Shown here piece after piece: positions 13,172-61,827 of a stretch of 64,000 bases of DNA (position 1 is its first letter; each line of letters begins with the position of its first letter). The notes beneath the pieces are model-generated. The model was not told the DNA's origin and did no database searches. It was given only the letters and a program-made list of their open reading frames with translations. The DNA lies in assembly GCA_041663045.1 (NCBI GenBank), contig JBAZRH010000001.1:148403-212402 (forward strand), in the 5' to 3' direction. The translations under genes were made by a program, and so were the position numbers. This stretch comes from Minisyncoccota bacterium (lineage in GTDB: Bacteria > Patescibacteriota > Minisyncoccia > Phycocordibacterales > GWA1-40-21).

Positions 13172-14194
13172 TTATTTATTAATTATTCTTACGATTCCTT
13201 TATCCGCATCGACTTCTATTAAATCACCGTCTTTAAAAACTTGTGTGGCGATTTTGGTACCTATTATACAAGGTTTCTTTAATTCGCGAGCCACTATTGC
13301 CGCATGGCAAGTAATGCCACCCTCATCTGTGACAAAGCCGGCAGCCTTGAGCATGGCCGGAAGAAAATCTGGAGTAGTCATTGGTGATACAATAATTTCA
13401 TCTTTTTGAATATCTTTTACTTGGTCTCTACGTCGAAGGATTCTGACCTTACCCTGCACTATACCCTTAAAAGCGACTTGACCTTTTACATGCTTAATAT
13501 TTTCTGTTATACGTTCAATATTTAATTTACATTGTTTATACTTTTTTGAAAATTCTTCTTGGCTACCGACGAAAAGAATGTCCCCATCAATTAGTGAAGA
13601 GTTATTCATACGTTTAATAAGCTCGTCTTCAGATGGTAAAGATTCAATCTCTTCAGATAGAATAACGTTTGTATATTTAGCTATTTTGGGGAATAGTTCA
13701 CGAATCGTATTACCTATATAGATATCGTTAGACGCAAAGAAAGTGTCATCTTTCCTTATGTCTAGGATCTCATCTGTAATACGTTTTGGCGTTTTCTCAT
13801 TTGTCACGGTGTAGTACCACAAATTAAAATTGAACATTAATTCTTGTAAGAGAATCAGATATTCCCTAAACTCCTTTATGTCTTTTGCCGATTTATTTTG
13901 CCAATATTCTTTTATAATCGATAATTGGGCTCGATATTCATTAAGAGACGTCTTTAGAAGATCAGGATTACCTAGATTCTGCTCAAGTAGTTTATCCTTA
14001 AGCCACTGTGTCGCAAACTGATTATCCCAAACCTCTACTACACCATCAATCATGTGGTGAATAATTATTGGTAAGAATGGATTCTGCCAGCCAAGTTTTT
14101 CTTTGATTCCTCTCGAGAGTTGTTGTGCCCAAATCTGTTGAATAAGGATCGTTGTATCTCTAGTGTAGCTTTTTTCAAATATATATTTATTCAT
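13172..14194 (-). CDS. PEP-utilising-enzyme swivel (phosphohistidine) domain protein, paralog A
   Basis: 340 aa; C-terminal ...VKGQVAFKGIVQGKVRIL...[76 protein letters not shown]; divergent helical N-terminal ~240 aa. Confidence 0.85.
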   Translation of the reverse strand: MNKYIFEKSYTRDTTILIQQIWAQQLSRGIKEKLGWQNPFLPIIIHHMIDGVVEVWDNQFATQWLKDKLLEQNLGNPDLLKTSLNEYRAQLSIIKEYWQNKSAKDIKEFREYLILLQELMFNFNLWYYTVTNEKTPKRITDEILDIRKDDTFFASNDIYIGNTIRELFPKIAKYTNVILSEEIESLPSEDELIKRMNNSSLIDGDILFVGSQEEFSKKYKQCKLNIERITENIKHVKGQVAFKGIVQGKVRILRRRDQVKDIQKDEIIVSPMTTPDFLPAMLKAAGFVTDEGGITCHAAIVARELKKPCIIGTKIATQVFKDGDLIEVDADKGIVRIINK

Positions 14195-14197
14195 ATA

Positions 14198-15532
14198 CTA
14201 TTTTATAATCTTAACCACCCCCTTATCCGCATCGACTTCTATTAAATCACCGTCCTCAAATATACTTGTAGCATGTTTTGTACCGACAATACAAGGTCTT
14301 TTCAACTCTCTAGATATAATAGCCGCGTGAGATGTTAGACCTCCTTCGTCTGTCACTATTGCAGAAGCGAGGCTCATTATTGGTAAAAATTCTGGGCGAG
14401 TACTTGTTGTTATAAGAATTTCCCCCTTTTGAAATTTTCCGAATTGGTGTTCTTTCAATACAATTTTTGCGATGCCTTGCACGACACCCTTACAGGCGAC
14501 TGTGCCTTTCGCGATTTTATTTTTGTCTTTTGACGTCATCCCTTCTATCACTTCCAGGGCGTTATCTTCTGTAAGTAATTTGGGAGGATTGTACTGTGGC
14601 GATATTAGAAAGACACTTTGTCTCTTACGTTTCAAGATAAAATCATTATCTTTTTTAAGTAATTCAATTTCCTCTGGTCTTGCCCAAATAAGATCATTGT
14701 AAGAGACCCCCTCTGTTTTTGATGCTTCGTGTATTATCGTGCTATAACAAACACTCATCATTTGCATATATACTTTCCTCTCTTCTCTCCACAGAGTGAA
14801 AATCTGAAGAAGATGAATAAGATTTTGCGTTTTTTCACTGAGTTTTGGGAGAAGCATTTGTTGTTCAGCTTCTCTCTTCAAATAATCTGTTGGAACCGGT
14901 TTAGGTAAGAAGTCTGCCCCTAGCATCTTTTCTGTAAGAACTTCTCCGCCAATCCAACTTCCTTTATAGTACCAATATTTTTTGATATATTCTTGTTTCG
15001 TCATCTTCCCTTGAAGAACTAATTCAAAATCAATCGCCGCTTTCTGTGTCCTAGTCGGCTCTATCGTCGCAATCAACCCATGAATATGCTCTTTATCTAT
15101 CCCAACTTTTTCTAACTCTTCGGAGATTTGCTTATCGATTTCTTCAGCGAAAGGATCTAGAGATTCAACAAAGTAAGACTCCATCCAAAACTCTGCAGCA
15201 AGGGTATCTACTTCTTTCCACATCTCTTTCCAGTCTTTTATTGGCTTATTTGTAATATTAAATAAATAATTCTCTTTTTTCTGCCATTTCTCTTTCCAAG
15301 ATATGAATCTTTTTGTTACAAATTCTTTTGAAACGCTTACCCAATATTTCATAAGTCCTTCGCTTGCACGCTTTTCAATAAACCATCTAGAAACCCCATT
15401 ATTGTTTATGACGACGAGTAATGCTTTTGTAACGAGGATTACTCCTATGGAGCAGGAATAATAAAACAATGGTGCTGATTCAGCCGATCCTGTTAGGAAA
15501 AAGTCTTCTTTTTTAAATTTCCATCTATCCAT
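14198..15532 (-). CDS. PEP-utilising-enzyme swivel domain protein, paralog B
   Basis: 444 aa; C-terminal TDEGGLTSHAAIISRELKRPCIVGTKHAT...DADKGVVKIIK; N-domain contains IFTLWREERKVYMQMM motif shared with other paralogs. Confidence 0.85.
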   Translation of the reverse strand: MDRWKFKKEDFFLTGSAESAPLFYYSCSIGVILVTKALLVVINNNGVSRWFIEKRASEGLMKYWVSVSKEFVTKRFISWKEKWQKKENYLFNITNKPIKDWKEMWKEVDTLAAEFWMESYFVESLDPFAEEIDKQISEELEKVGIDKEHIHGLIATIEPTRTQKAAIDFELVLQGKMTKQEYIKKYWYYKGSWIGGEVLTEKMLGADFLPKPVPTDYLKREAEQQMLLPKLSEKTQNLIHLLQIFTLWREERKVYMQMMSVCYSTIIHEASKTEGVSYNDLIWARPEEIELLKKDNDFILKRKRQSVFLISPQYNPPKLLTEDNALEVIEGMTSKDKNKIAKGTVACKGVVQGIAKIVLKEHQFGKFQKGEILITTSTRPEFLPIMSLASAIVTDEGGLTSHAAIISRELKRPCIVGTKHATSIFEDGDLIEVDADKGVVKIIK

Positions 15533-15547
15533 ATTTATTTCGTTATA

Positions 15548-17113
15548 TTAATCTTTTATTATCCTTACGATTCCCTTATCTGCATCCACTTCCACCAAAT
15601 CCCCGTCTTTTAGCACCTTTGTGGCAATCTTTGTGCCTATTATACAAGGAATACCTAGCTCTCTTGAAACAATCGCGGCGTGGCAACTAATACCTCCCTC
15701 ATCCGTGATTATAGCGCCAGCAATTTTCATTGCAGGAACATAGTTTGGCATAGTCATACTCGTCACAAGTATTTCCCCAGCTTCTAATTTACCTATCTCA
15801 TTTGCAGAATGTAATACTTTCACAATACCTTTAACAAGTCCTTTGCATGCAATATTTCCCTTAAATGTATCGACTCTTTCTGTCTTTTTTTCAATTATCT
15901 CTTTTATTTTTTCACCGATTGCTATATCTAATTCGTATATTGTGTCTTTAGTATATATGACAGCATACCCGCCACTTCTTTCAAGGATCTTGTTTAGATT
16001 GATCTTTTCTCCAAGCAAGAAATCTGTGATTTCCCAGAAATTGAATAGGCAGATTTTCTTATGATTATCTAGTCCAGCCCTTTTTCCTATTTCATAAAAT
16101 AGATTTTGAACTTTATAGCACACCTCTTCTAGTTTCTCTACTCTTAGTAAACGAATGTGCGCCAAATCAGATGCCTGATGTGCATAAGTAATAACAACTT
16201 TATTTAATCCAGCCTCTTTTATTATTTGTTTTTTTGCTTTAATAAGTCTTTTCTTTGCTTCTTCAATCTCATTTAGTTTTTTCTGTGGATTTTCTCCGAG
16301 TACCTTTTTTAGGTTATTAATAAAATCAGCAAAGCTCTCATAATTAAATCTAAGTTCGGCGTCTGGAATCCAGGCATATTTTTCATAAACATTTTTGATT
16401 ATCTTTATCTGATTGTCTTTAACACCGCTTAAATTTTCATTTAGTGATTGTACATCTACAAAAGTCGATATTTTTATTGCAAGTTTTATCAAAGATTCCT
16501 CTTTTTCTTGAATAGTTGAAATAGTTTCTGAAGAAGTTAAAAGACGTAAGCTTTCCTGTAGCTCTTCATAATTATTGATTGGATTATATACTTTTGATAG
16601 TTCCTCAGTAATTATTCTTATTAGTCCATCTTCTGCTAAAAGCGGTGGCCATAGGTAGACCAATACATTAAATGAGAAATTAAGATATTTTTCATAATAT
16701 TTAAGTAATTTCTTGTCACACATAACAGAAAAATCTATTTTACTTGTTTTATCTGCCCATGTATCAAATAATTTACATTCTTTATATAACCCTGAAAATA
16801 GTTTATCTAAATACCGATAATCTTCTCTGCACTTCTTTTCAAATAGTACTTTGATTTTATCGGCGTTTTCTTCCTGGGAGTATACGTCGTAGTTTAGAGT
16901 CATTATCTTATCCATTTTATTTTTCAGACCAAAATCTTCCCTATCTGAAACACATCCAACACGGATGAGAGAGTCAAAAAGAGGAGAGTTTAACCTCTTT
17001 AAAACTTTGAACCACTTTTCAGAAGCCAGAGTACCAATTTCTTGTCCAGAGATCGTATTAGTTAAGGTTTTATAATCACCTTCTGATATTTTTATCTTTC
17101 TCGTATTTTTCAT
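15548..17113 (-). CDS. PEP-utilising-enzyme swivel domain protein, paralog C
   Basis: 521 aa; C-terminal [53 protein letters not shown]; 4-nt overlap with next gene. Confidence 0.85.
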   Translation of the reverse strand: MKNTRKIKISEGDYKTLTNTISGQEIGTLASEKWFKVLKRLNSPLFDSLIRVGCVSDREDFGLKNKMDKIMTLNYDVYSQEENADKIKVLFEKKCREDYRYLDKLFSGLYKECKLFDTWADKTSKIDFSVMCDKKLLKYYEKYLNFSFNVLVYLWPPLLAEDGLIRIITEELSKVYNPINNYEELQESLRLLTSSETISTIQEKEESLIKLAIKISTFVDVQSLNENLSGVKDNQIKIIKNVYEKYAWIPDAELRFNYESFADFINNLKKVLGENPQKKLNEIEEAKKRLIKAKKQIIKEAGLNKVVITYAHQASDLAHIRLLRVEKLEEVCYKVQNLFYEIGKRAGLDNHKKICLFNFWEITDFLLGEKINLNKILERSGGYAVIYTKDTIYELDIAIGEKIKEIIEKKTERVDTFKGNIACKGLVKGIVKVLHSANEIGKLEAGEILVTSMTMPNYVPAMKIAGAIITDEGGISCHAAIVSRELGIPCIIGTKIATKVLKDGDLVEVDADKGIVRIIKD

Positions 17114-20100
17114 TTTTTCTTATTTAATAATCTTACCACCCCCTTATCTGCATCCACTTCCACTAAATCTCCATCTTTAAGCACCTGCATAGAGTGTAAA
17201 CAACCGACAATACAAGGGATTTTTAATTCTCTGCTTATTATAGCCGCGTGAGATGTTATACCGCCTTCGTCAGCAATGATGGCAGCCGCTTTTCTCGCTA
17301 TTGCCATCATATTTGGCTGGGTCATACTTGTCACGAGAATTTCACCTTCTTTAAAGTCCTTTATACTTTTTTGTAGCATATCCAAATCTCCAGCTATAAC
17401 CTTCCTGACTTTTCCCGTCGCCTTTCCCAACATAGCAATTTGACCCTTTATTGTATTATCAATATTGATAATTTTCTTAATTTTTTCTTTAAAAAGATTA
17501 TTTGCTTCATCTGCTCCAACAACTCTAAGTTTATTATCACTTATTATAATTGCATAGGATTCTTTTCTGTCTACGATTATTGATTTTATATTTCCACGAT
17601 GTGTTCCATTTAACAATTCAATTGTCTCTGGTGGGGTAACAAAATCTAGCATATCAGATAGAGAGATATTAATTCTCTTTGATACCTCATTTAATAAATG
17701 CCTAGATAAATAATACGATCCTGCCCAATATGATTTTATATTCATCCTCTCGATTGATTGGTATTGTAAAAAGTCGGATAAATATTTTACTTCGTCACTT
17801 TCTGATCCAATTTTTCTGTAAATATTCTCCTGTCCTCTTCTGAGCTTCTCCTTATCTTCTTTTAATTTAGAATATTCTAGTCTATACGTATTTTTTTCAG
17901 ATTTTTTTCTATTCTCAAGAAACTTGAGAGTCCTTTTATCGTCGTATTGGCCGAAGACAAGCCAAGGATACTTTGATAGATGTTTTAGTAAAATCGAGTC
18001 ATCGTGTTTTTTTGATAAAATACTTAGCCAATCTAAATATTCTCTTTGTATATCATCAAGAGAAAGCGGAGTTGATAATATACCAAAAACTCTCGGCCAA
18101 TCATTATTAAAATATTTTCTAATAATCTCTTCTAATCTCTGCTCGGCTTTATAAGTAAATTCTGTCCTAGTGCTTCCAAAATATGCTATCGAATCTTTAG
18201 CGTGATCAATAAAAGAATTATAATCTTTAATTATTTGCCCATTTGTATATCTCGAAAAATCTACCGATTCGATTTTTCTCACCCAATTCCACCATTTCTT
18301 TGCTGCTACCCTATACTTAGATTTGTATTTATTGAAATATTTCTCGTCTAGGTATTTTTCTCCAATTTCTTTGAATTTATCTAGCTGTTTTTTAGGCATA
18401 TAAGTTGTGATCACCGATCCATCAAAATAACAGAATATTTCACCCTCTCCATATATATCCCCGTGAGTTATCAAGGCCTCTGAAGTAGTCCATGATGCTG
18501 GCATTATAGGAGTCGTACTCCACATAAAGACCCATTCATCGTTATTTTTTTCTGATATTCCAACCTCTTTTTTAAGTATCTTTATTACTCCCTTATCCGC
18601 ATCGACTTCCACCAGATCTCCATCTTTGAAAACTTGCGTGGCGATTTTGGTACCGACAATACATGGGATTTTTAATTCCCTGGAAATAATTGCCGCGTGG
18701 CAAGTTAAACCCCCTTCATCTGTAACAATAGCTGCGGCATTTTTTAAATAAGGGACAATTTGAGGGTTGGTCATACCAGAAACTAATATTGTACCGGGAG
18801 GAATATCGGCTCCATTCATAAGACTAAGATGTATTTTGACTGGACCTATCGCTTTTCCATGAAAAGCGATATTTCCTTTTACTTCAGCAACGTTTTGGGG
18901 TTCCAAGATTTTTTTCCAGGACAAATATTCGTTACCAGTTAAAAGATCGTTGCTTACCTTTCTGTATGGTAACAATGCCAAACCATTCATCCTCTCATTA
19001 AGCTCGTCCTTGTTTGGCACTCTTTGTCCATACAAGATCTCTTCTATTTCACAACTTCTAAGCGAGAAAGCTTGATTTAACGTAATGTGATGTTTATCAG
19101 CTAATCCCTGCATAAAATCAGTGAGGATCTCAAATAACGGACCAAGAGAGTTGTGTATTTTGAATTTCAATTCACCGAGTTTTATTAATCTGTTCAAAAT
19201 AGATTTTTGTTGTTTATTGAATTTTAATTTCGTAGCATAAGTTGAATCGTGTAATGCTTTTATTAAATTACTTTCTGTTTTAGCTGCTTTTATTATAATG
19301 TTTTCCAACGCTACCAGAACAGGTTGTTCACAGTATAAATATAGATTGCCTATTTTATCAAATAAATTTTCTATTATTTTCCATCGAGATATTTTATCTT
19401 TATCTGAAACTTTATCTAATTTGGTCTGAAGAGACTCTGGCTTTAACTCTTCGGCCAATTTTTTTAACTCTTTTATTTTTTGATTAGCAAATTTGTCATT
19501 TAAGAGTTTTTCTCCAAGATCAAATGCTTGTCTTTGGCCTTCTTTACTCAGATATCCAGCGATATGATCGTCTTTCTGTAAGACAACATAATCAATTTGG
19601 CCATAATTTTTTGGACGAAAAGCTATATCTGTGAAAATAAAAGGAAAATCTGTTTGACGAAAATGAAGTATATAAGAGTCTCTTTCTTCACTGTTTTTAT
19701 CTTTCAAAATCTTAATCACGCCTTTGTCTGCATCCACCTCGATTTCATCACCATCTTTGATAATTTGAGTGGCAATTTTTGTATCTATAATACATGGCTT
19801 ATGAATTTCTCTCGAGACTATGGCGGCATGACATAATAATCCACCTATATCTGTGATTATGGCAGAAGCCTGTTGCATCAAGATAACAAAATCTGGCGTT
19901 GTCATTGTGGACACTAGAATATCTCCAGCTTTCATTTTATGAAATTCATCTCTATTTATAACAACTCTAGCAATTCCTCGGACTTTTCCAGGATATGCTA
20001 CTACGCCTTTTGTTTCCTTCGCGTCTTTATCGGCATGAGGCAACATCTTGTCTTTTAAGTATTCAATATCTTCTTTATCCTCAATAACAATAGAATTTTC

Positions 20101-20766
20101 TTCCTTGTTGGCAAATAGAAACCAGTTTAAATCTCTCCTCCTTATTCCTCGTTTTTTTAGTTCATCTTTTTCAATTTCTCCTTTTAGTCCGGAAAGTATT
20201 TCAGTTGGAGAAAGCATTGTAAATTGACGATATTCTAGATTCAACTCTTTCGCTACAGCATGAAATAGCGGATATGCTTTGGCTGAAAGCATTGAAAAAT
20301 ATTCCGTAGAAACTTGTTTTACATAACCACAAGCGTGCATACACTCTGCACAAAATTCTAGTTTTTTAGAAACTTTCGGTAAAACCTTTTTTGTATGTAC
20401 CCCAGCATCTTTCGAATGAATTATTTGCTCATAAAGTCTGTCAACGGTTAATAATTCACCCACGAAGTTCAAGACTTCAATCCACTCATATTTTTCTGCA
20501 TGTTCCTCAAGCTTCTTTAATAGTGTTTTATTTTTCTTAACTTCTTTAAGGGTTTTGTTTCCGATTAACTTTTTAAGTTTCAAAACTTCTTGTTGTTGGA
20601 TTGTCAGTGGCGAAATAACCTGAGGTATTAAATCAGGTACAAGATCGGCTGGAAACTTTTCTTTGACGACTATATCCGCTAAAACTTCTTCAGATGCTTC
20701 AACAAGAAAAGTCGCACCCAGAAGCCATATAAAATTTAGCTTTCTAATTTCACCGAAAAGTTCCAA
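17110..20766 (-). CDS. triple-module PEP-utilising swivel domain protein (three N-domain + swivel units in one ORF), paralog D
   Basis: 1218 aa from the TTG/first-Met call. Swivel domains at approx nt 19712-19990 ([25 protein letters not shown]), 18585-18850 ([25 protein letters not shown]) and 17113-17400 ([25 protein letters not shown]). The reading frame stays open upstream to nt 21129 with no ATG. Confidence 0.8.
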   Translation of the reverse strand: MELFGEIRKLNFIWLLGATFLVEASEEVLADIVVKEKFPADLVPDLIPQVISPLTIQQQEVLKLKKLIGNKTLKEVKKNKTLLKKLEEHAEKYEWIEVLNFVGELLTVDRLYEQIIHSKDAGVHTKKVLPKVSKKLEFCAECMHACGYVKQVSTEYFSMLSAKAYPLFHAVAKELNLEYRQFTMLSPTEILSGLKGEIEKDELKKRGIRRRDLNWFLFANKEENSIVIEDKEDIEYLKDKMLPHADKDAKETKGVVAYPGKVRGIARVVINRDEFHKMKAGDILVSTMTTPDFVILMQQASAIITDIGGLLCHAAIVSREIHKPCIIDTKIATQIIKDGDEIEVDADKGVIKILKDKNSEERDSYILHFRQTDFPFIFTDIAFRPKNYGQIDYVVLQKDDHIAGYLSKEGQRQAFDLGEKLLNDKFANQKIKELKKLAEELKPESLQTKLDKVSDKDKISRWKIIENLFDKIGNLYLYCEQPVLVALENIIIKAAKTESNLIKALHDSTYATKLKFNKQQKSILNRLIKLGELKFKIHNSLGPLFEILTDFMQGLADKHHITLNQAFSLRSCEIEEILYGQRVPNKDELNERMNGLALLPYRKVSNDLLTGNEYLSWKKILEPQNVAEVKGNIAFHGKAIGPVKIHLSLMNGADIPPGTILVSGMTNPQIVPYLKNAAAIVTDEGGLTCHAAIISRELKIPCIVGTKIATQVFKDGDLVEVDADKGVIKILKKEVGISEKNNDEWVFMWSTTPIMPASWTTSEALITHGDIYGEGEIFCYFDGSVITTYMPKKQLDKFKEIGEKYLDEKYFNKYKSKYRVAAKKWWNWVRKIESVDFSRYTNGQIIKDYNSFIDHAKDSIAYFGSTRTEFTYKAEQRLEEIIRKYFNNDWPRVFGILSTPLSLDDIQREYLDWLSILSKKHDDSILLKHLSKYPWLVFGQYDDKRTLKFLENRKKSEKNTYRLEYSKLKEDKEKLRRGQENIYRKIGSESDEVKYLSDFLQYQSIERMNIKSYWAGSYYLSRHLLNEVSKRINISLSDMLDFVTPPETIELLNGTHRGNIKSIIVDRKESYAIIISDNKLRVVGADEANNLFKEKIKKIINIDNTIKGQIAMLGKATGKVRKVIAGDLDMLQKSIKDFKEGEILVTSMTQPNMMAIARKAAAIIADEGGITSHAAIISRELKIPCIVGCLHSMQVLKDGDLVEVDADKGVVRLLNKKK

Positions 20767-53527: not shown

Positions 53528-53577
53528 ACTTTTATTCTAACACAAAAAAGATGTTTGATAAGCATGTACTAATTTTG

Positions 53578-53651
53578 TGGGCAATACAGGGTTCGAACCT
53601 GTGACCTCACGAATGTGAATCGTGCGCTCTAACCAACTGAGCTAATTGCCC
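53578..53651 (-). tRNA. tRNA-Val (anticodon CAC)
   Basis: Minus-strand GGGCAAT TA GCTC AGTTGGTTA GAGC G CACGA TTCACAT TCGTG AGGTC ACAGG TTCGAAC CCTGT ATTGCCC A. Clean cloverleaf; CCA not encoded. Confidence 0.8.
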
Positions 53652-53730
53652 GTACGATAATTTATATCACAAAAGGCTTCTAAATTCTATTTTGATTTTT
53701 AGTATTAAATAAGCTATACTCCTCCGAGTT

Positions 53731-53803
53731 GGGCCGCTAGCTCATTTGGTAGAGCGCATCCATGGCATGGATGAGGCGACCGGTTCGATCCCGGTGCGGT
53801 CCA
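53731..53803 (+). tRNA. tRNA-Ala (anticodon GGC)
   Basis: GGGCCGC/GCGGTCC acceptor stem with G3:U70 Ala identity pair; anticodon arm CATCC-ATGGCAT-GGATG; T-arm ACCGG TTCGATC CCGGT. Confidence 0.8.
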
Positions 53804-53992
53804 CAAGCAAAAATCATTATCGATTTTTGTGGACCGCAGCAAGCAAACTGCTTTGCTTGCGACCGGGATCGAAAGGATTTTTTAATATTTTTTAGAAATT
53901 CTGATTTTTAAAAAATCAAGAAATCACCCGCTGCGGTAGGCAGAGATACCCGGTGCAGTTCACATTTCGTGATACACAAGATACGTTTATTT

Positions 53993-54063
53993 GGGCCTAT
54001 AGTCTAGTGGTACGACGCGTCATTCGCATTGACGAAGCGGCGGTCCGACTCCGCCTAGGTCCA
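53993..54063 (+). tRNA. tRNA-Ala (anticodon CGC), 71 nt
   Basis: GGGCCTA/TAGGTCC acceptor with G3:U70; anticodon arm CGTCA-TTCGCAT-TGACG; T-arm GGCGG TCCGACT CCGCC; D-arm slightly irregular. Confidence 0.65.
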
Positions 54064-54229
54064 CAAAGGTTAAAAATCGCAACTGCTTGCGATTTTTTAC
54101 ACTTTGTGGAAGACGCAGCTATATTTTTGTTTTATGTAATAAAGGCGAAAATAGCGAGCCGGGGTCGCGAGATTTTTCTGTCAGGAAAAATACTTGTGAC
54201 CACAAGATTGTGATACAATATCGATCATA

Positions 54230-54303
54230 CGGGGTGTCGTATAGTGGTAGTATACACGTTTCGGGTACGTGAAGCCTGAGTTCGATTCTCAGCACCCCGA
54301 CCA
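54230..54303 (+). tRNA. tRNA-Pro (anticodon CGG), CCA encoded
   Basis: CGGGGTG/CACCCCG acceptor with C1:G72 (bacterial Pro identity), anticodon arm CACGT-TTCGGGT-ACGTG, T-arm CTGAG TTCGATT CTCAG, 3' ACCA. Confidence 0.7.
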
Positions 54304-56696: not shown

Positions 56697-56769
56697 GGGC
56701 CTGTAGCTCATCTGGTAGAGCGCCTCATTTGCAATGAGGAGGTAAGCGGTTCGAGCCCGCTCAGGTCCA
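56697..56769 (+). tRNA. tRNA-Ala (anticodon TGC)
   Basis: GGGCCTG/CAGGTCC acceptor with G3:U70; anticodon arm CCTCA-TTTGCAA-TGAGG; T-arm AGCGG TTCGAGC CCGCT. Confidence 0.8.
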
Positions 56770-56843
56770 CAAGCGTTAAGAAAATCCGCACTTCTCTGTC
56801 TTAACCCGAAGTAATAGGGCTTACCTGAATAGCCTAGAACAGG

Positions 56844-57087: not shown

Positions 57088-58527
57088 ATGAAAATTACCG
57101 ATATTAAAAATGACGAGCTTAAATATATGGTTGAGAGGATTGAGCCATATTTTGCTTCGTCTATTATAATTAGAGGGATGGTTGATAAGAAAAACGTCGA
57201 GAATATTCTTGAATGGAGAGCTGGAGTAAGATGGTTATATACTAATAATTATTTTTTTGCTAAAACGAGTGATCAAAAGATTGCTAAGGAAGATTTACAA
57301 AATAAATTCAAAAAAGGAGGGAATATTTATACTGGTAATCTAATAAAGAAATGTTTTGAACTTGGCAATCAACTAATTGAAGTCGCAAAGTCCATTGAGG
57401 TAATTACAAGTAAAGAAAACTTAGCCACCGAAGAAATGTATGATTGTCTAAAAAGATACTTGGATTCTGCTAGTAATTATATGATTTTTCAAAATCTGGT
57501 TTTGTTTGAAGACCCAATCTCGGAATTAGCCCGCAATACAGTAAAGAAATATGCAAAAAGTGAAAAGGAAGAAAATGAACTTCTTGGACTTATAACTACT
57601 GCTAGCCATCTAACTGGCGGGGAAAAAGAGCAGGATGATTTTCTAAGATTAGGTATTAAGAAAGCCACTGATAAGGAAATTGACGAACATGCTAGAAAAT
57701 ATGGTTGGCTAGCAATAAGATTCTTTGTTGGGGAACCGTGGACTAAAAATGATGTACTAGGGCGACTTTCTAGAACTGATTCTGTATCTGCTGAGATAGA
57801 ACTCAAAAAAAGGATTGAGTATCGGGAAGGAATTGAGAAAAAAATCATAAAGGCGATAGATGTTTTTAGCAAAGAAGACAAAGATATTGTTCAGCTCATT
57901 AGAGATGTTGTATATCTACGTACCCAGAGGACAGACTTCTTTCAGGAGTCGTCGTATTACGTACAAACTTTAGTAAAGGAAATTGCTATTAATTTTGGCG
58001 TTTCTTATTACGATCTTCTCTATTTGAGTGTACCAGAAGTCTTACAAGCACTGAAGGATAAGTTCAATGTAATAGGAAGCATTGAGAAAAGAAAGAAAGG
58101 CTTTGTCGTTTTTTTTGATTACGATGAAGATCATATTCTTGAAGGATCTGAAGCAAAAAAATTCGTCGATGAAAGACCGATATTAAATCATAGAACTTTG
58201 GAGGTGAAGGAATTGAAGGGCAGTATTGGATATAAAGGCAAGGCAAAAGGAAGCGTATGTATTGTTAAAACGGCCCATGACAATTCTAAAGTTAAAGAGG
58301 GGGATATTATTGTTGCGATTATGACTACGCCCAACTTTATCCCAGCATTAGAAAAAGCATCTGCATTTATTACTGATGAAGGCGGAATTACTTGTCATGC
58401 TGCAATTATAGCTCGGGAAATGAAAAAGCCCTGTATTATTGGTACTAAAAATGCTACCCAAGTTTTAAAAGATGGAGATTTGGTTGAGGTGGATGCTGAT
58501 AAGGGGGTGGTGAGAATAATTAAATAA
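57088..58527 (+). CDS. PEP-utilising-enzyme swivel domain protein, outlying paralog U
   Basis: 479 aa; C-terminal [52 protein letters not shown]; VYLRTQRTDFF motif in N-domain. Confidence 0.85.
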   Translation: MKITDIKNDELKYMVERIEPYFASSIIIRGMVDKKNVENILEWRAGVRWLYTNNYFFAKTSDQKIAKEDLQNKFKKGGNIYTGNLIKKCFELGNQLIEVAKSIEVITSKENLATEEMYDCLKRYLDSASNYMIFQNLVLFEDPISELARNTVKKYAKSEKEENELLGLITTASHLTGGEKEQDDFLRLGIKKATDKEIDEHARKYGWLAIRFFVGEPWTKNDVLGRLSRTDSVSAEIELKKRIEYREGIEKKIIKAIDVFSKEDKDIVQLIRDVVYLRTQRTDFFQESSYYVQTLVKEIAINFGVSYYDLLYLSVPEVLQALKDKFNVIGSIEKRKKGFVVFFDYDEDHILEGSEAKKFVDERPILNHRTLEVKELKGSIGYKGKAKGSVCIVKTAHDNSKVKEGDIIVAIMTTPNFIPALEKASAFITDEGGITCHAAIIAREMKKPCIIGTKNATQVLKDGDLVEVDADKGVVRIIK

Positions 58528-58544
58528 ATTAATGGTTAAAATTT

Positions 58545-60465: not shown

Positions 60466-61827
60466 TCAAACCAAGGACTTTTTGGCGAGGGTTTTGCGAT
60501 GATATTTGATGGCAAATCTATGAGCTTCGTTATTTGCGAGTAGAATGTCGTTTGAATATTTGGAAGTGATAGTTTTATCCCCCAATATCGCCTTTGGCCT
60601 ATGTCTTTCATCTTTAAGTACCGAAACCACCTCCAACTTGGCTATACGATAGCCAAGTAAACGAGATACGACTTCCCTAGCGACTTTGATCTGGGCTTTT
60701 CCTCCATCCACAACTATTATTTGTGGAAAAGCCCATTCTTCATGAGCGAGTCTTCTCTCCAATATTTCTTTTAGACCGGCAATATCATTTTGCTTACTTT
60801 CTCTTATTTTGAATTTTCTATATCCATTTTTTGCTGGCTCGCCGTCTTCTAGCACTACCATAACGCCGACATTGGCTGTGCCACTGATGTGGGCAATGTC
60901 GTAGGCTTCGATACGGAGGATTTTTCTTTCCTCAAGGTTCGACCTTTCTTGGGATTTAAGGTCGAACCTTTTCCCAGAGAAATCCTCCGCTTTTAGGAGA
61001 GCGACATCCTGAATATGATTTAATGCGAAAATTGTCTTTTTAATTTCTCCAGCTTTTTCAAATTTTTGCTCTTTCGCCAAGGCCTTCATCTCTTTTTCAA
61101 GATTTTTTATGATTTTTGTCTTTTTACCTTCAAAAAATAAAATAATATTTTTAATTATTTTTTTATAATCAACTTTTGAAATGCTCCCGTCGCAAGCTCC
61201 GGGGCAAAGTCCGATTTGTTTATTGAAGCAAGGCTCGCCTTGGTTTGGAGTGCATCTATCACGAAATGGAAAAATTTTGCGAACAATTTTCACAGCTTCT
61301 TTGAGTTGGGTGCTGTGTGGAAAAGGTCCAAAAATACGCTGGACTGGCTCCTCAAGGTTCGACCTTTTTTGAGATTTAAGGTCGAACCTTTTCCAGCTAG
61401 TCATATTTGATTTATCAAGGAGAGACCTTGGATCTGCAAAAAGGTCTCTCCTTGGAAAATCTAAACTTCTTCCTCTTTCTATCAAAACTCTTGGAAAGTC
61501 CTCTTTTGTAATAATGACAAAATTATAACTTTTATCATCTTTTTCTTTTGTATTGTATTTCGGTTTATGTTTTTTTATAAGTTCGGCTTCTAGGATAAGT
61601 GCTTCAAGGATAGAGTCAGTCTTTTGAAAAGTGATTTTGTCCGCCTTAAAAACCATATCTACAATAAGCGGACCGCGAGTGGCGATAAGATCATTACTAA
61701 AATAGCTTTTTACCCTATCGCGAAGAGATGTCGCTTTTCCAATATAAAAAATCTCCCTCCCCTTTTTGAAGAAATAAATGCCAGGCGTATCGGGTAGTTT
61801 GTGTTTTTTTAAATCTTGACTTTGCAT
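60466..61827 (-). CDS. uvrC: excinuclease ABC subunit C (short form, GIY-YIG + endonuclease core) carrying two in-frame palindromic repeat insertions
   Basis: 453 aa; GIY-YIG N-terminus (GIYFFKKGREIFYIGKATSLRDRV), IFGPFP, RIEAYDIAHISG endonuclease motif. Confidence 0.8.
   Translation of the reverse strand: MQSQDLKKHKLPDTPGIYFFKKGREIFYIGKATSLRDRVKSYFSNDLIATRGPLIVDMVFKADKITFQKTDSILEALILEAELIKKHKPKYNTKEKDDKSYNFVIITKEDFPRVLIERGRSLDFPRRDLFADPRSLLDKSNMTSWKRFDLKSQKRSNLEEPVQRIFGPFPHSTQLKEAVKIVRKIFPFRDRCTPNQGEPCFNKQIGLCPGACDGSISKVDYKKIIKNIILFFEGKKTKIIKNLEKEMKALAKEQKFEKAGEIKKTIFALNHIQDVALLKAEDFSGKRFDLKSQERSNLEERKILRIEAYDIAHISGTANVGVMVVLEDGEPAKNGYRKFKIRESKQNDIAGLKEILERRLAHEEWAFPQIIVVDGGKAQIKVAREVVSRLLGYRIAKLEVVSVLKDERHRPKAILGDKTITSKYSNDILLANNEAHRFAIKYHRKTLAKKSLV
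60931..60974. repeat. 44-nt palindromic repeat inside uvrC, copy 1
   Basis: CTCAAGGTTCGACCTTTCTTGGGATTTAAGGTCGAACCTTTTCC; internal inverted repeat AAGGTTCGACCTT / AAGGTCGAACCTT; translated in frame as KRFDLKSQKRSNLEE. Confidence 0.7.
61351..61394. repeat. 44-nt palindromic repeat inside uvrC, copy 2 (exactly 420 nt from copy 1)
   Basis: CTCAAGGTTCGACCTTTTTTGAGATTTAAGGTCGAACCTTTTCC, 3 mismatches to copy 1; translated in frame as KRFDLKSQERSNLEE. Confidence 0.7.

Follow-up and report, generated by a model that had tools for sequence, protein, structure and literature searches.

What are nearly identical palindromes doing inside the reading frame of a uvrC gene? The question is raised by a 64-kb window of a Minisyncoccota bacterium genome (the whole stretch of 64,000 nucleotides analysed here; assembly GCA_041663045.1, contig JBAZRH010000001.1, positions 148,403 to 212,402), in which an earlier note, made from the letters alone, had described two 44-nt palindromic repeats inserted in frame in uvrC and likened them to the Rickettsia palindromic elements (RPEs). 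We report that these repeats belong to a dispersed family of very short hairpin-forming palindromic repeats in Parcubacteria (Candidate Phyla Radiation, CPR) genomes. The family is apparently undescribed, as no relevant description of the elements or of their core sequence was found in the searchable literature on CPR bacteria, Patescibacteria or Parcubacteria. On balance, we consider it probable that the elements are a selfish hairpin repeat family that is tolerated in frame, resembling the RPEs in the way it works without being homologous to them.

The host gene occupies positions 60466-61827 on the minus strand, encodes 453 amino acids, and was identified as uvrC-like from the list of open reading frames (ORFs), Pfam, PDB sequence matches and the names of its homologues. 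Pfam assigned a GIY-YIG nuclease domain to residues 16-92, a UVR motif to residues 238-269 and a UvrC RNase H-like endonuclease domain to residues 301-440, and the product resembles the solved N- and C-terminal domains of UvrC. Its homologues are annotated as excinuclease ABC subunit C of Candidatus Paceibacterota, and an identical protein is recorded from a metagenome-assembled genome of Candidatus Paceibacterota, on a contig of 428,695 bp. Bacterial UvrC typically has a C-terminal (HhH)2 DNA-binding domain; no Pfam match to this domain was found at the C-terminus of the protein. UvrC proteins of this Paceibacterota clade (homologues P0001-P0120) are short, about 400-450 residues, with the RNase H-like domain at the end.

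The two repeats lie on the minus strand at 61349-61396 (site 1, with the hairpin at 61354-61390) and at 60929-60976 (site 2, with the hairpin at 60934-60970). They are 96% identical over the shared 46-48 nt, and the two hairpins start 420 nt apart (60934 and 61354). As the earlier note had claimed, each copy has its own 13-bp inverted repeat; the arms, AAGGTTCGACCTT and AAGGTCGAACCTT, pair perfectly and flank a loop of 11 nt. Dinucleotide-preserving shuffles gave an expectation of 0.00 matches. The shared unit (GGGAAAAGGTTCGACCTTAAATCCCAAGAAAGGTCGAACCTTGAGGAA on the coding strand at site 2) is 48 nt or 16 codons long, not 44 nt as given there. The claim that both copies read in frame within UvrC was also correct: the coding-strand translation of the two units is (G/W)KRFDLKSQ(K/E)RSNLEE. 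The site 1 unit codes for W-KRFDLKSQKRSNL-EE (residues 145-160), within the linker that joins the GIY-YIG domain to the Cys-rich middle region, and the site 2 unit codes for G-KRFDLKSQERSNL-EE (residues 285-300), within the linker that joins the UVR motif to the RNase H domain. The peptides KRFDLKSQKRSNLEE (residues 146-160) and KRFDLKSQERSNLEE (residues 286-300) directly precede the IFGPFP and RIEAYDIAH blocks, respectively, and the sequence across the hairpin-encoded residues of the protein reads ...TSWKRFDLKSQK....

Beside these two insertions, a third, variant hairpin that had been missed is located at 61416-61454 on the minus strand and precedes site 1 in the gene by 20 nt. The evidence for it comes from the hairpin scan, a general-architecture pattern search, RNA folding and the covariance model. 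This hairpin (CAAGGAGAGACCTT-ggatctgcaaa-AAGGTCTCTCCTTG) has a perfect 14-bp stem, an 11-nt loop and a further 5-bp outer stem, and codes for PRRDLFADPRSLLD at residues 125-138. It carries the same AAGG-N5-CCTT boxes as the other two, with the stem centre AGAGA/TCTCT. When folded as sense-strand RNA, site 2, site 1 and the third hairpin had energies of -20.7, -23.8 (z = -5.1) and -27.6 kcal/mol (z = -6.1), respectively. We searched the whole window without filters using a covariance model (R1) built from 70 family members (alignment A2), and found exactly three copies, all housed in uvrC, with E values of 2e-12 for site 2, 9e-13 for site 1 and 2e-11 for the third hairpin; the next match had an E value of about 0.7. 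The three hairpin inserts together account for the roughly 40-45 residues by which this UvrC exceeds its nearest relatives (408-419 residues). Lying inside the ORF, the uvrC copies have GAGGAG/GAGGAA or GATAAA after them and no run of T, which is not the form of a terminator.

To place the hairpin segments in the evolution of UvrC, we used a protein alignment of 24 orthologues, codon-level alignments of eight genes for which DNA was available, and a survey of 120 homologues. The orthologue alignments show the segments as insertions in two inter-domain linkers, and the match of the RNase H domain to solved structures starts at residue 304-305, directly after site 2. The placement in linkers proposed in the earlier note was thus borne out both by the orthologues and by the starts of the solved domains. 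An AlphaFold model based on the 24-sequence alignment had low confidence overall (mean pLDDT 59.6), with the RNase H domain predicted well and residues 91-181 and 273-301 unstructured; at this low confidence the model agrees with both insertion zones being unstructured. Among the 120 homologues, an unbiased set, linkers with an element are about 10-11 residues longer than empty ones, and an intact element peptide was found at site 1 in 14 proteins, at site 2 in 12 and at both sites in 6.

The state of the two sites varies from intact to decaying, remnant and empty across the orthologues. In the closest relatives (P0002-P0005; 74-81% identity, 408-419 residues), site 1 is empty and site 2 retains a degenerate trace (...TCGAACCTAGA...). 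Both sites are intact in P0006 and P0007, and site 1 alone is intact in P0008. P0009 has a copy at site 2 alone with one arm decaying, and P0013, which is 93% identical to P0009, has none. By these comparisons, the uvrC elements are insertions relative to UvrC generally that decay or disappear in many lineages. The earlier note had expected lineage-specific insertions; the absence of site 1 from the closest relatives supports the insertions, but they are not specific to this organism, as orthologues at about 70% identity are occupied at the same two sites. The uvrC insertions are therefore old or recurrent. UvrC proteins have three stem types (KRFDL..KRSNL, the swapped KRSNL..KRFDL, and KRSFL..KRRDL), and the type matches at both sites in five of the six doubly occupied proteins. 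Judging from these types, the uvrC elements evolve in concert inside a genome. The exact insertion boundaries and any target-site duplication could not be resolved from the comparison of filled and empty sites, since the linkers are too divergent even at 93% protein identity.

Is the element confined to uvrC? Within the 64 kb it is, but elsewhere many related genomes carry it, in frame, in numerous genes unrelated to one another, so that the expectation of further in-frame copies raised by the earlier note held across genomes and not within the window. We scanned one genome per GTDB species using the arms only, without flanks, and recovered at least 120 stretches; all counts are lower bounds. 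The scan yielded at least 125 canonical copies, or at least 151 from at least 81 genomes when variant centres are included, and several genomes had 4-7 copies apiece within the 8-30 kb fetched. Among the matches listed, nearly all taxon-labelled records with the element are Patescibacteria, with titles that include Kaiser-, Taylor-, Yanofsky-, Adler-, Wolfe-, Vogel-, Zambryski-, Yonath-, Wildermuth- and Moran(ii)bacteria, Paceibacterota, Minisyncoccia and one Microgenomates record. One record titled 'uncultured Candidatus Saccharibacteria' (L094, CAYQFQ010000007.1) has a Paceibacterota-type uvrC (P0007), and a metagenome-assembled genome (MAG) titled 'uncultured Bdellovibrionales' (CAZFIH01; loci L021, L024, L086 and L089) has five copies of the CPR hairpin. 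We do not trust these two labels on third-party annotation (TPA) MAGs, and therefore claim as the range the Parcubacteria-type groups plus the one Microgenomates record rather than the CPR as a whole.

The variant arms of the third hairpin (AGAGA/TCTCT) were found in 12 copies on 6 metagenome contigs, with at least four copies on one contig of 99.6 kb, and ORFs of 588, 825 and 3511 residues contain in-frame copies. A metagenome scan with the loop flavour of the source genome itself gave no matches. The element has a density of 3 copies in the 64-kb window, compared with a few on each 100-kb contig elsewhere. No longer autonomous element was found between arms in 865 kb of fetched loci; solo arms turned out to be hairpins with one mutated partner, a swapped arrangement, or single 13-mers tipping shorter hairpins. 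Rfam 15 contained no family that matched at its gathering score, and the best match (26 bits against the 44 required) was hairpin noise of the microRNA or small nucleolar RNA kind.

The architecture common to the copies is AAGG-N5-CCTT, a loop of 5-16 nt, and AAGG-N5'-CCTT, about 37-48 nt in total, and all six frames of the arms are free of stop codons. The 865 kb of fetched loci contain 163 places that match this paired arrangement, with about 20 distinct stem centres. In 162 of the 163, the paired centres complement each other with no more than one mismatch, compared with 1.6% expected by chance. In the alignment of 70 copies, the eight box pairs are invariant and the five central pairs have many double changes; pair 12-41, for example, is CG in 41 copies, UA in 9, AU in 8, GC in 7, UG in 5 and unpaired in none. 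The covariation score was 0.318, compared with 0.113 in shuffles and no more than 0.10 with the partners slid. Such changes are also seen in uvrC itself: the site 1 arms of locus L002 have the compensatory change TTTGA/TCAAA, and in locus L003 the entire stem centre is exchanged for another (AAGGTCTTTCCTT / AAGGAGAGACCTT) at both uvrC sites. Because the variable centres stay mutually complementary, an intrastrand hairpin must play a part, whether as single-stranded DNA or RNA or during the process by which copies are made. Arm-to-arm complementarity is not needed for the binding of a protein to duplex DNA.

The positions next to the core also pair. At each of five flanking positions, inverted-complement pairing was present in about 46-64% of copies, with sequences that differ from copy to copy, and the palindrome thus often reaches past the conserved core. 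The loop has the motif G(A/G)GAATTC(G/T)GG..TT in either orientation and in genome-specific flavours, and both orientations occur in coding and in intergenic DNA. Lone 13-mers (AAGGTTCGACCTT or AAGGTCGAACCTT) tip shorter hairpins made by the flanks at L034:3573 and L036:135, in the forms ccatc|13-mer|gatgg and ttccg|13-mer|cggaa. Since each arm is itself a quasi-palindrome (AAGGT-NNN-ACCTT), the full element could derive from the fold-back duplication of a mini-hairpin.

Most copies are inside genes. Among the copies listed, 89 of the 125 canonical ones lie in long open frames; by a stricter criterion the figure is 110 of 157, and about 10 additional copies in regions open on both strands bring it to 110-120 of 157, or about 70% in ORFs. 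All three reading frames are used, giving RFDL/RSNL, GSTL/GRTL and KVRP/KVEP. Several housekeeping genes carry clusters: TsaD/Kae1 has five hairpins with five different centres within 1 kb (L117:2174-3208), cysteinyl-tRNA synthetase (CysRS) has three (L118:3937-4906), and an IscS/NifS-type desulfurase has three (L046:451-1554). The differing stem centres inside one housekeeping gene are CAACG, CAATG, ACGGT, ACTGT and TTCGA. These clusters, which parallel the three copies confined to uvrC in the window, suggest local spread or a gene-specific tolerance. When compared with solved homologues, three of the TsaD segments fall on gaps of 9-18 residues and a fourth in an insertion that does not align, and each of the three CysRS segments is opposite a gap; the positions in both proteins are scattered and not limited to domain junctions. 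None of the genic copies checked breaks the frame or splits a gene, which fits translation under purifying selection. From this preservation of the frame we infer that the hairpin peptides are translated.

The copies outside ORFs that were checked occupy short spacers between separate complete genes, such as those between atpA and atpG, between a membrane protease gene and rpsL, and between hup and glpX. The hairpin is often the whole spacer (L021:598-633 and 2696-2731; L033:2738-2773; L054:3618-3653; also L026, L035, L041 and L068). Two flavours of these intergenic copies were seen. One, TCCT|hairpin|AGGA(N)ATG, as in atpA/atpG, supplies the upstream stop codon TAA and a Shine-Dalgarno-like AGGA, and the other, AAAAC|hairpin|GTTTTT, resembles an intrinsic terminator.

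We propose that the family multiplies as selfish DNA, either through a single-stranded hairpin or fold-back intermediate or by gene conversion from other copies. With arms free of stop codons, a copy that enters a surface loop or linker in frame would simply be translated, adding 12-16 hydrophilic residues; such copies could persist even in essential genes, and those that break the frame would be purged. The copying or conversion process would keep the stems perfect and would shift the type of both uvrC sites together, and a factor that recognises the boxes, encoded by the host or by the element, is probably required. The uvrC elements themselves, which add some 45 residues in all to two linkers, most likely do nothing useful.

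Several observations weigh against the selfish reading. There were no matches to the element in 2.9 million viral contigs, and hence there is no obvious vector. No demonstrably recent transposition was seen, and the copies of the window are confined to one gene. In the fetched loci, no transposase, parent element or target-site duplication was seen, although no search for the REP-associated tyrosine transposase (RAYT) was made, and the flanks of the element tend to be inverted complements and not direct repeats. The perfect stems conserved at orthologous sites over about 30% protein divergence, and the identical 13-mer in many candidate phyla, are more conserved than is usual for a decaying selfish insert, so that some constraint or function is possible. 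As for tolerance in surface loops, the mean pLDDT of the AlphaFold model is too weak to prove such a placement in UvrC.

The same conservation could be read as the mark of functional mRNA hairpins, kept by selection for ribosome pausing at domain boundaries or for mRNA stability or processing. The hairpins are indeed stable (-21 to -29 kcal/mol, with z down to -6), those of uvrC are located at domain boundaries, the stems have compensatory changes and stay perfect at orthologous sites, and the loop motif has a sense-strand orientation bias of 27 versus 10, with stop codons and shared ancestry as confounders. If pairing were selected in the message, an excess of G.U over A.C would be expected among the single stem mismatches, but when these are oriented by the host gene there are 5 A.C, 4 G.U and 5 others, and we see in these small numbers no sign of selection for pairing specifically in mRNA. 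The use of both orientations, of three frames and of intergenic spacers, the scattered positions in TsaD and CysRS, the absence of the element from the closest UvrC relatives, the common decayed remnants and the lack of an Rfam match also speak against such a role, which we regard as unlikely. Slightly more unlikely, in our estimate, is that the 13-mer is a DNA-level signal for a conserved CPR protein, such as an uptake, recombination or nucleoid site spread, often in inverted pairs, by molecular drive. A single 13-mer across many candidate phyla, invariant AAGG/CCTT boxes that resemble protein contact points, and intergenic copies with terminator-like AAAAC...GTTTTT flanks, as in paired DNA uptake sequences (DUS), would suit such a signal, and CPR bacteria are thought to scavenge DNA. 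On the other hand, the density of the element is low compared with roughly one per kb for DUS and uptake signal sequences (USS), the copies are insertions of about 40-48 nt and not motifs built by point mutation, and recognition of a duplex does not call for the complementary centres seen in nearly every pair.

Two further explanations have far less in their favour. It is very improbable that the elements never reach the protein, being cut out of the message as mini-introns or passed over by the ribosome as bypass elements like the mitochondrial 'byps', even though they are short stable hairpins in essential genes and introns are known in the rRNA genes of CPR bacteria. Inserts that are spliced out or bypassed would have no reason to preserve the frame, yet all the genic copies examined keep the host frame open, with no stop codon or frameshift. 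The ORFs that abut intergenic copies were also considered as halves of split genes, and were rejected as such because they are separate complete genes. The chance that the repeated peptide is a functional protein motif, for example a short linear interaction motif in the UvrC linkers with the palindrome incidental, is slimmer still. In several orthologues both linkers do carry the peptide, with conserved flanks (F-S/G-G-K ... E-E). But the use of three frames gives unrelated peptides and effectively refutes this explanation; moreover, synonymous positions are identical as well, the covariation of the arms is at the nucleotide level, variant centres alter the peptide wholly (as in KRSFL..KRRDL), and intergenic copies exist.

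A bolder proposal, which we put forward tentatively and consider doubtful, is that the hairpins are the cis-elements of an undescribed Parcubacteria-wide system in which a dedicated protein reads the AAGG/CCTT boxes on a folded single strand. This protein might be a transposase specific for hairpins, a nuclease, or a factor of DNA uptake or recombination, and the covarying 5-bp centre would serve as a specificity or identity code. Such a system would account for the 13-mer and the perfect stems across candidate phyla and orthologous sites, as well as for the change of both sites to the same type within a genome.

Among known systems, the selfish family that we favour is closest to the RPEs (RPE-1 to RPE-10; also in Wolbachia). 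RPEs are 100-150 bp long, form about ten families, and occur in intergenic and coding DNA, often in frame, with some ancient copies at orthologous sites (PMC10969869, PMC1779305). The two groups share interspersed palindromes in the intergenic and coding DNA of host-dependent bacteria with small genomes, in-frame insertion in unrelated housekeeping genes (here UvrC, TsaD, CysRS and IscS, with translation deduced from the frame), some ancient insertions that are common to orthologous sites, and a lineage-specific proliferation (PMC10969869, PMC1779305). They differ in length (37-48 nt here), in host (Rickettsiales for the RPEs, Patescibacteria/Parcubacteria MAGs here) and in construction: RPEs are defined by the consensus sequences of their families and each encode a conserved peptide, whereas the elements described here have perfect stems, fixed boxes, a covarying 5-bp centre, three frames and often several copies per gene. 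Set apart by published length, family and host, the elements appear by this analogy to resemble RPEs in function and not through homology. The idea of an RPE-like family advanced in the earlier note is thus supported in the functional sense; the family is far wider than the one lineage suggested there and extends over many Parcubacteria-type CPR groups.

Repetitive extragenic palindromic (REP) sequences and bacterial interspersed mosaic elements (BIMEs), which are mobilised by RAYT, an IS200/IS605-like Y1 enzyme, are likewise short hairpins (20-40 nt) with a small fixed motif and a stem that varies from genome to genome while staying paired. This likeness suggests a trans-acting enzyme that works on single-stranded DNA and reads structure plus a short box. 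REPs are by definition extragenic and have a GTAG-type head, and their genomes usually contain a RAYT gene with REPs on either side. In contrast, about 70% of the copies described here are inside ORFs, and AAGG/CCTT lies within a perfect stem with variable flanks rather than as GTAG at the foot of an imperfect hairpin. MITEs (miniature transposable elements with inverted repeats) such as Correia, ERIC and Nezha are also small non-autonomous inverted repeats in transcribed regions that can give rise to in-frame fusions and act as sources of terminators or ribosome-binding sequences (PMC10969869). The inverted repeats of MITEs are terminal and bounded by direct target-site duplications, and MITEs derive from identifiable insertion sequences; in the elements here the conserved repeats are internal, the flanks are often inverted-complementary, no target-site duplication or parent insertion sequence was seen in the fetched loci, and the size is under the usual MITE range.

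The coding palindromes in the mitochondria of Nematomorpha are perfect inverted repeats in genes with both arms translated, but they reach 284 bp, lie in animal mitochondrial genes and are not a dispersed family on one core (PMC6649704). The DUS of Neisseria and the USS of Pasteurellaceae are short motifs tolerated in permissive coding frames, whose inverted pairs can be terminators; they are far denser than the hairpins here, originate by point mutation, and do not require arm-to-arm covariation. CRISPR and TIGR-Tas arrays were also considered and ruled out, as the copies are dispersed in ORFs and irregularly spaced, lack C/D boxes, and have neither a Tas nor a Cas gene next to them. TIGR stem arrays, which are known from Parcubacteria as well, are tandem box-C/D guide arrays beside tas genes (PMC12045711).

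Apart from uvrC, the window contains an array of about 20 tandem paralogous genes on the minus strand (about 12000-48200; products of 340-1218 residues), which is unusually large for the genome size. Examples are the genes at 13172-14194, 14198-15532, 15548-17113 and 17110-20766, and a partial inverted copy lies at 58277-58528. Each of the three array genes tested ends in the mobile (swivelling phosphohistidine) domain of phosphoenolpyruvate (PEP)-utilising enzymes (PF00391; E values of 1e-24 to 1e-26). The N-terminal parts are variable, and the conserved 3' ends form the repeat families D1/D2 with a spacing of 1-1.5 kb. There is also a tRNA cluster at 53577-54303 and 56697-56770 (Val-CAC, Ala-GGC, Ala-CGC, Pro-CGG and Ala-UGC). 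A perfect inverted copy of the final 12 nt of tRNA-Ala(GGC) lies 20 nt downstream, forming a 12-bp hairpin (53795-53838) that reuses the acceptor and 3' end and is possibly a terminator or a processing signal.

If the hairpin family is as widespread as the genome scan suggests, a general feature of Parcubacteria (CPR) genomes has seemingly gone unnoticed, and essential enzymes such as UvrC, TsaD, CysRS, IscS and others bear one to five translated hairpin inserts. Such inserts bear on the alignment, modelling and annotation of CPR proteins, and their presence or absence, together with the stem type, may provide markers for the fine-scale phylogeny and population genetics of uncultured lineages. 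The concerted evolution, together with the architecture of fixed boxes and a covarying centre, points towards a specific molecular machine. The family would also represent, after Rickettsia, a second, independent and much larger natural experiment on the invasion and tolerance of selfish palindromes in the coding sequence of reduced genomes.

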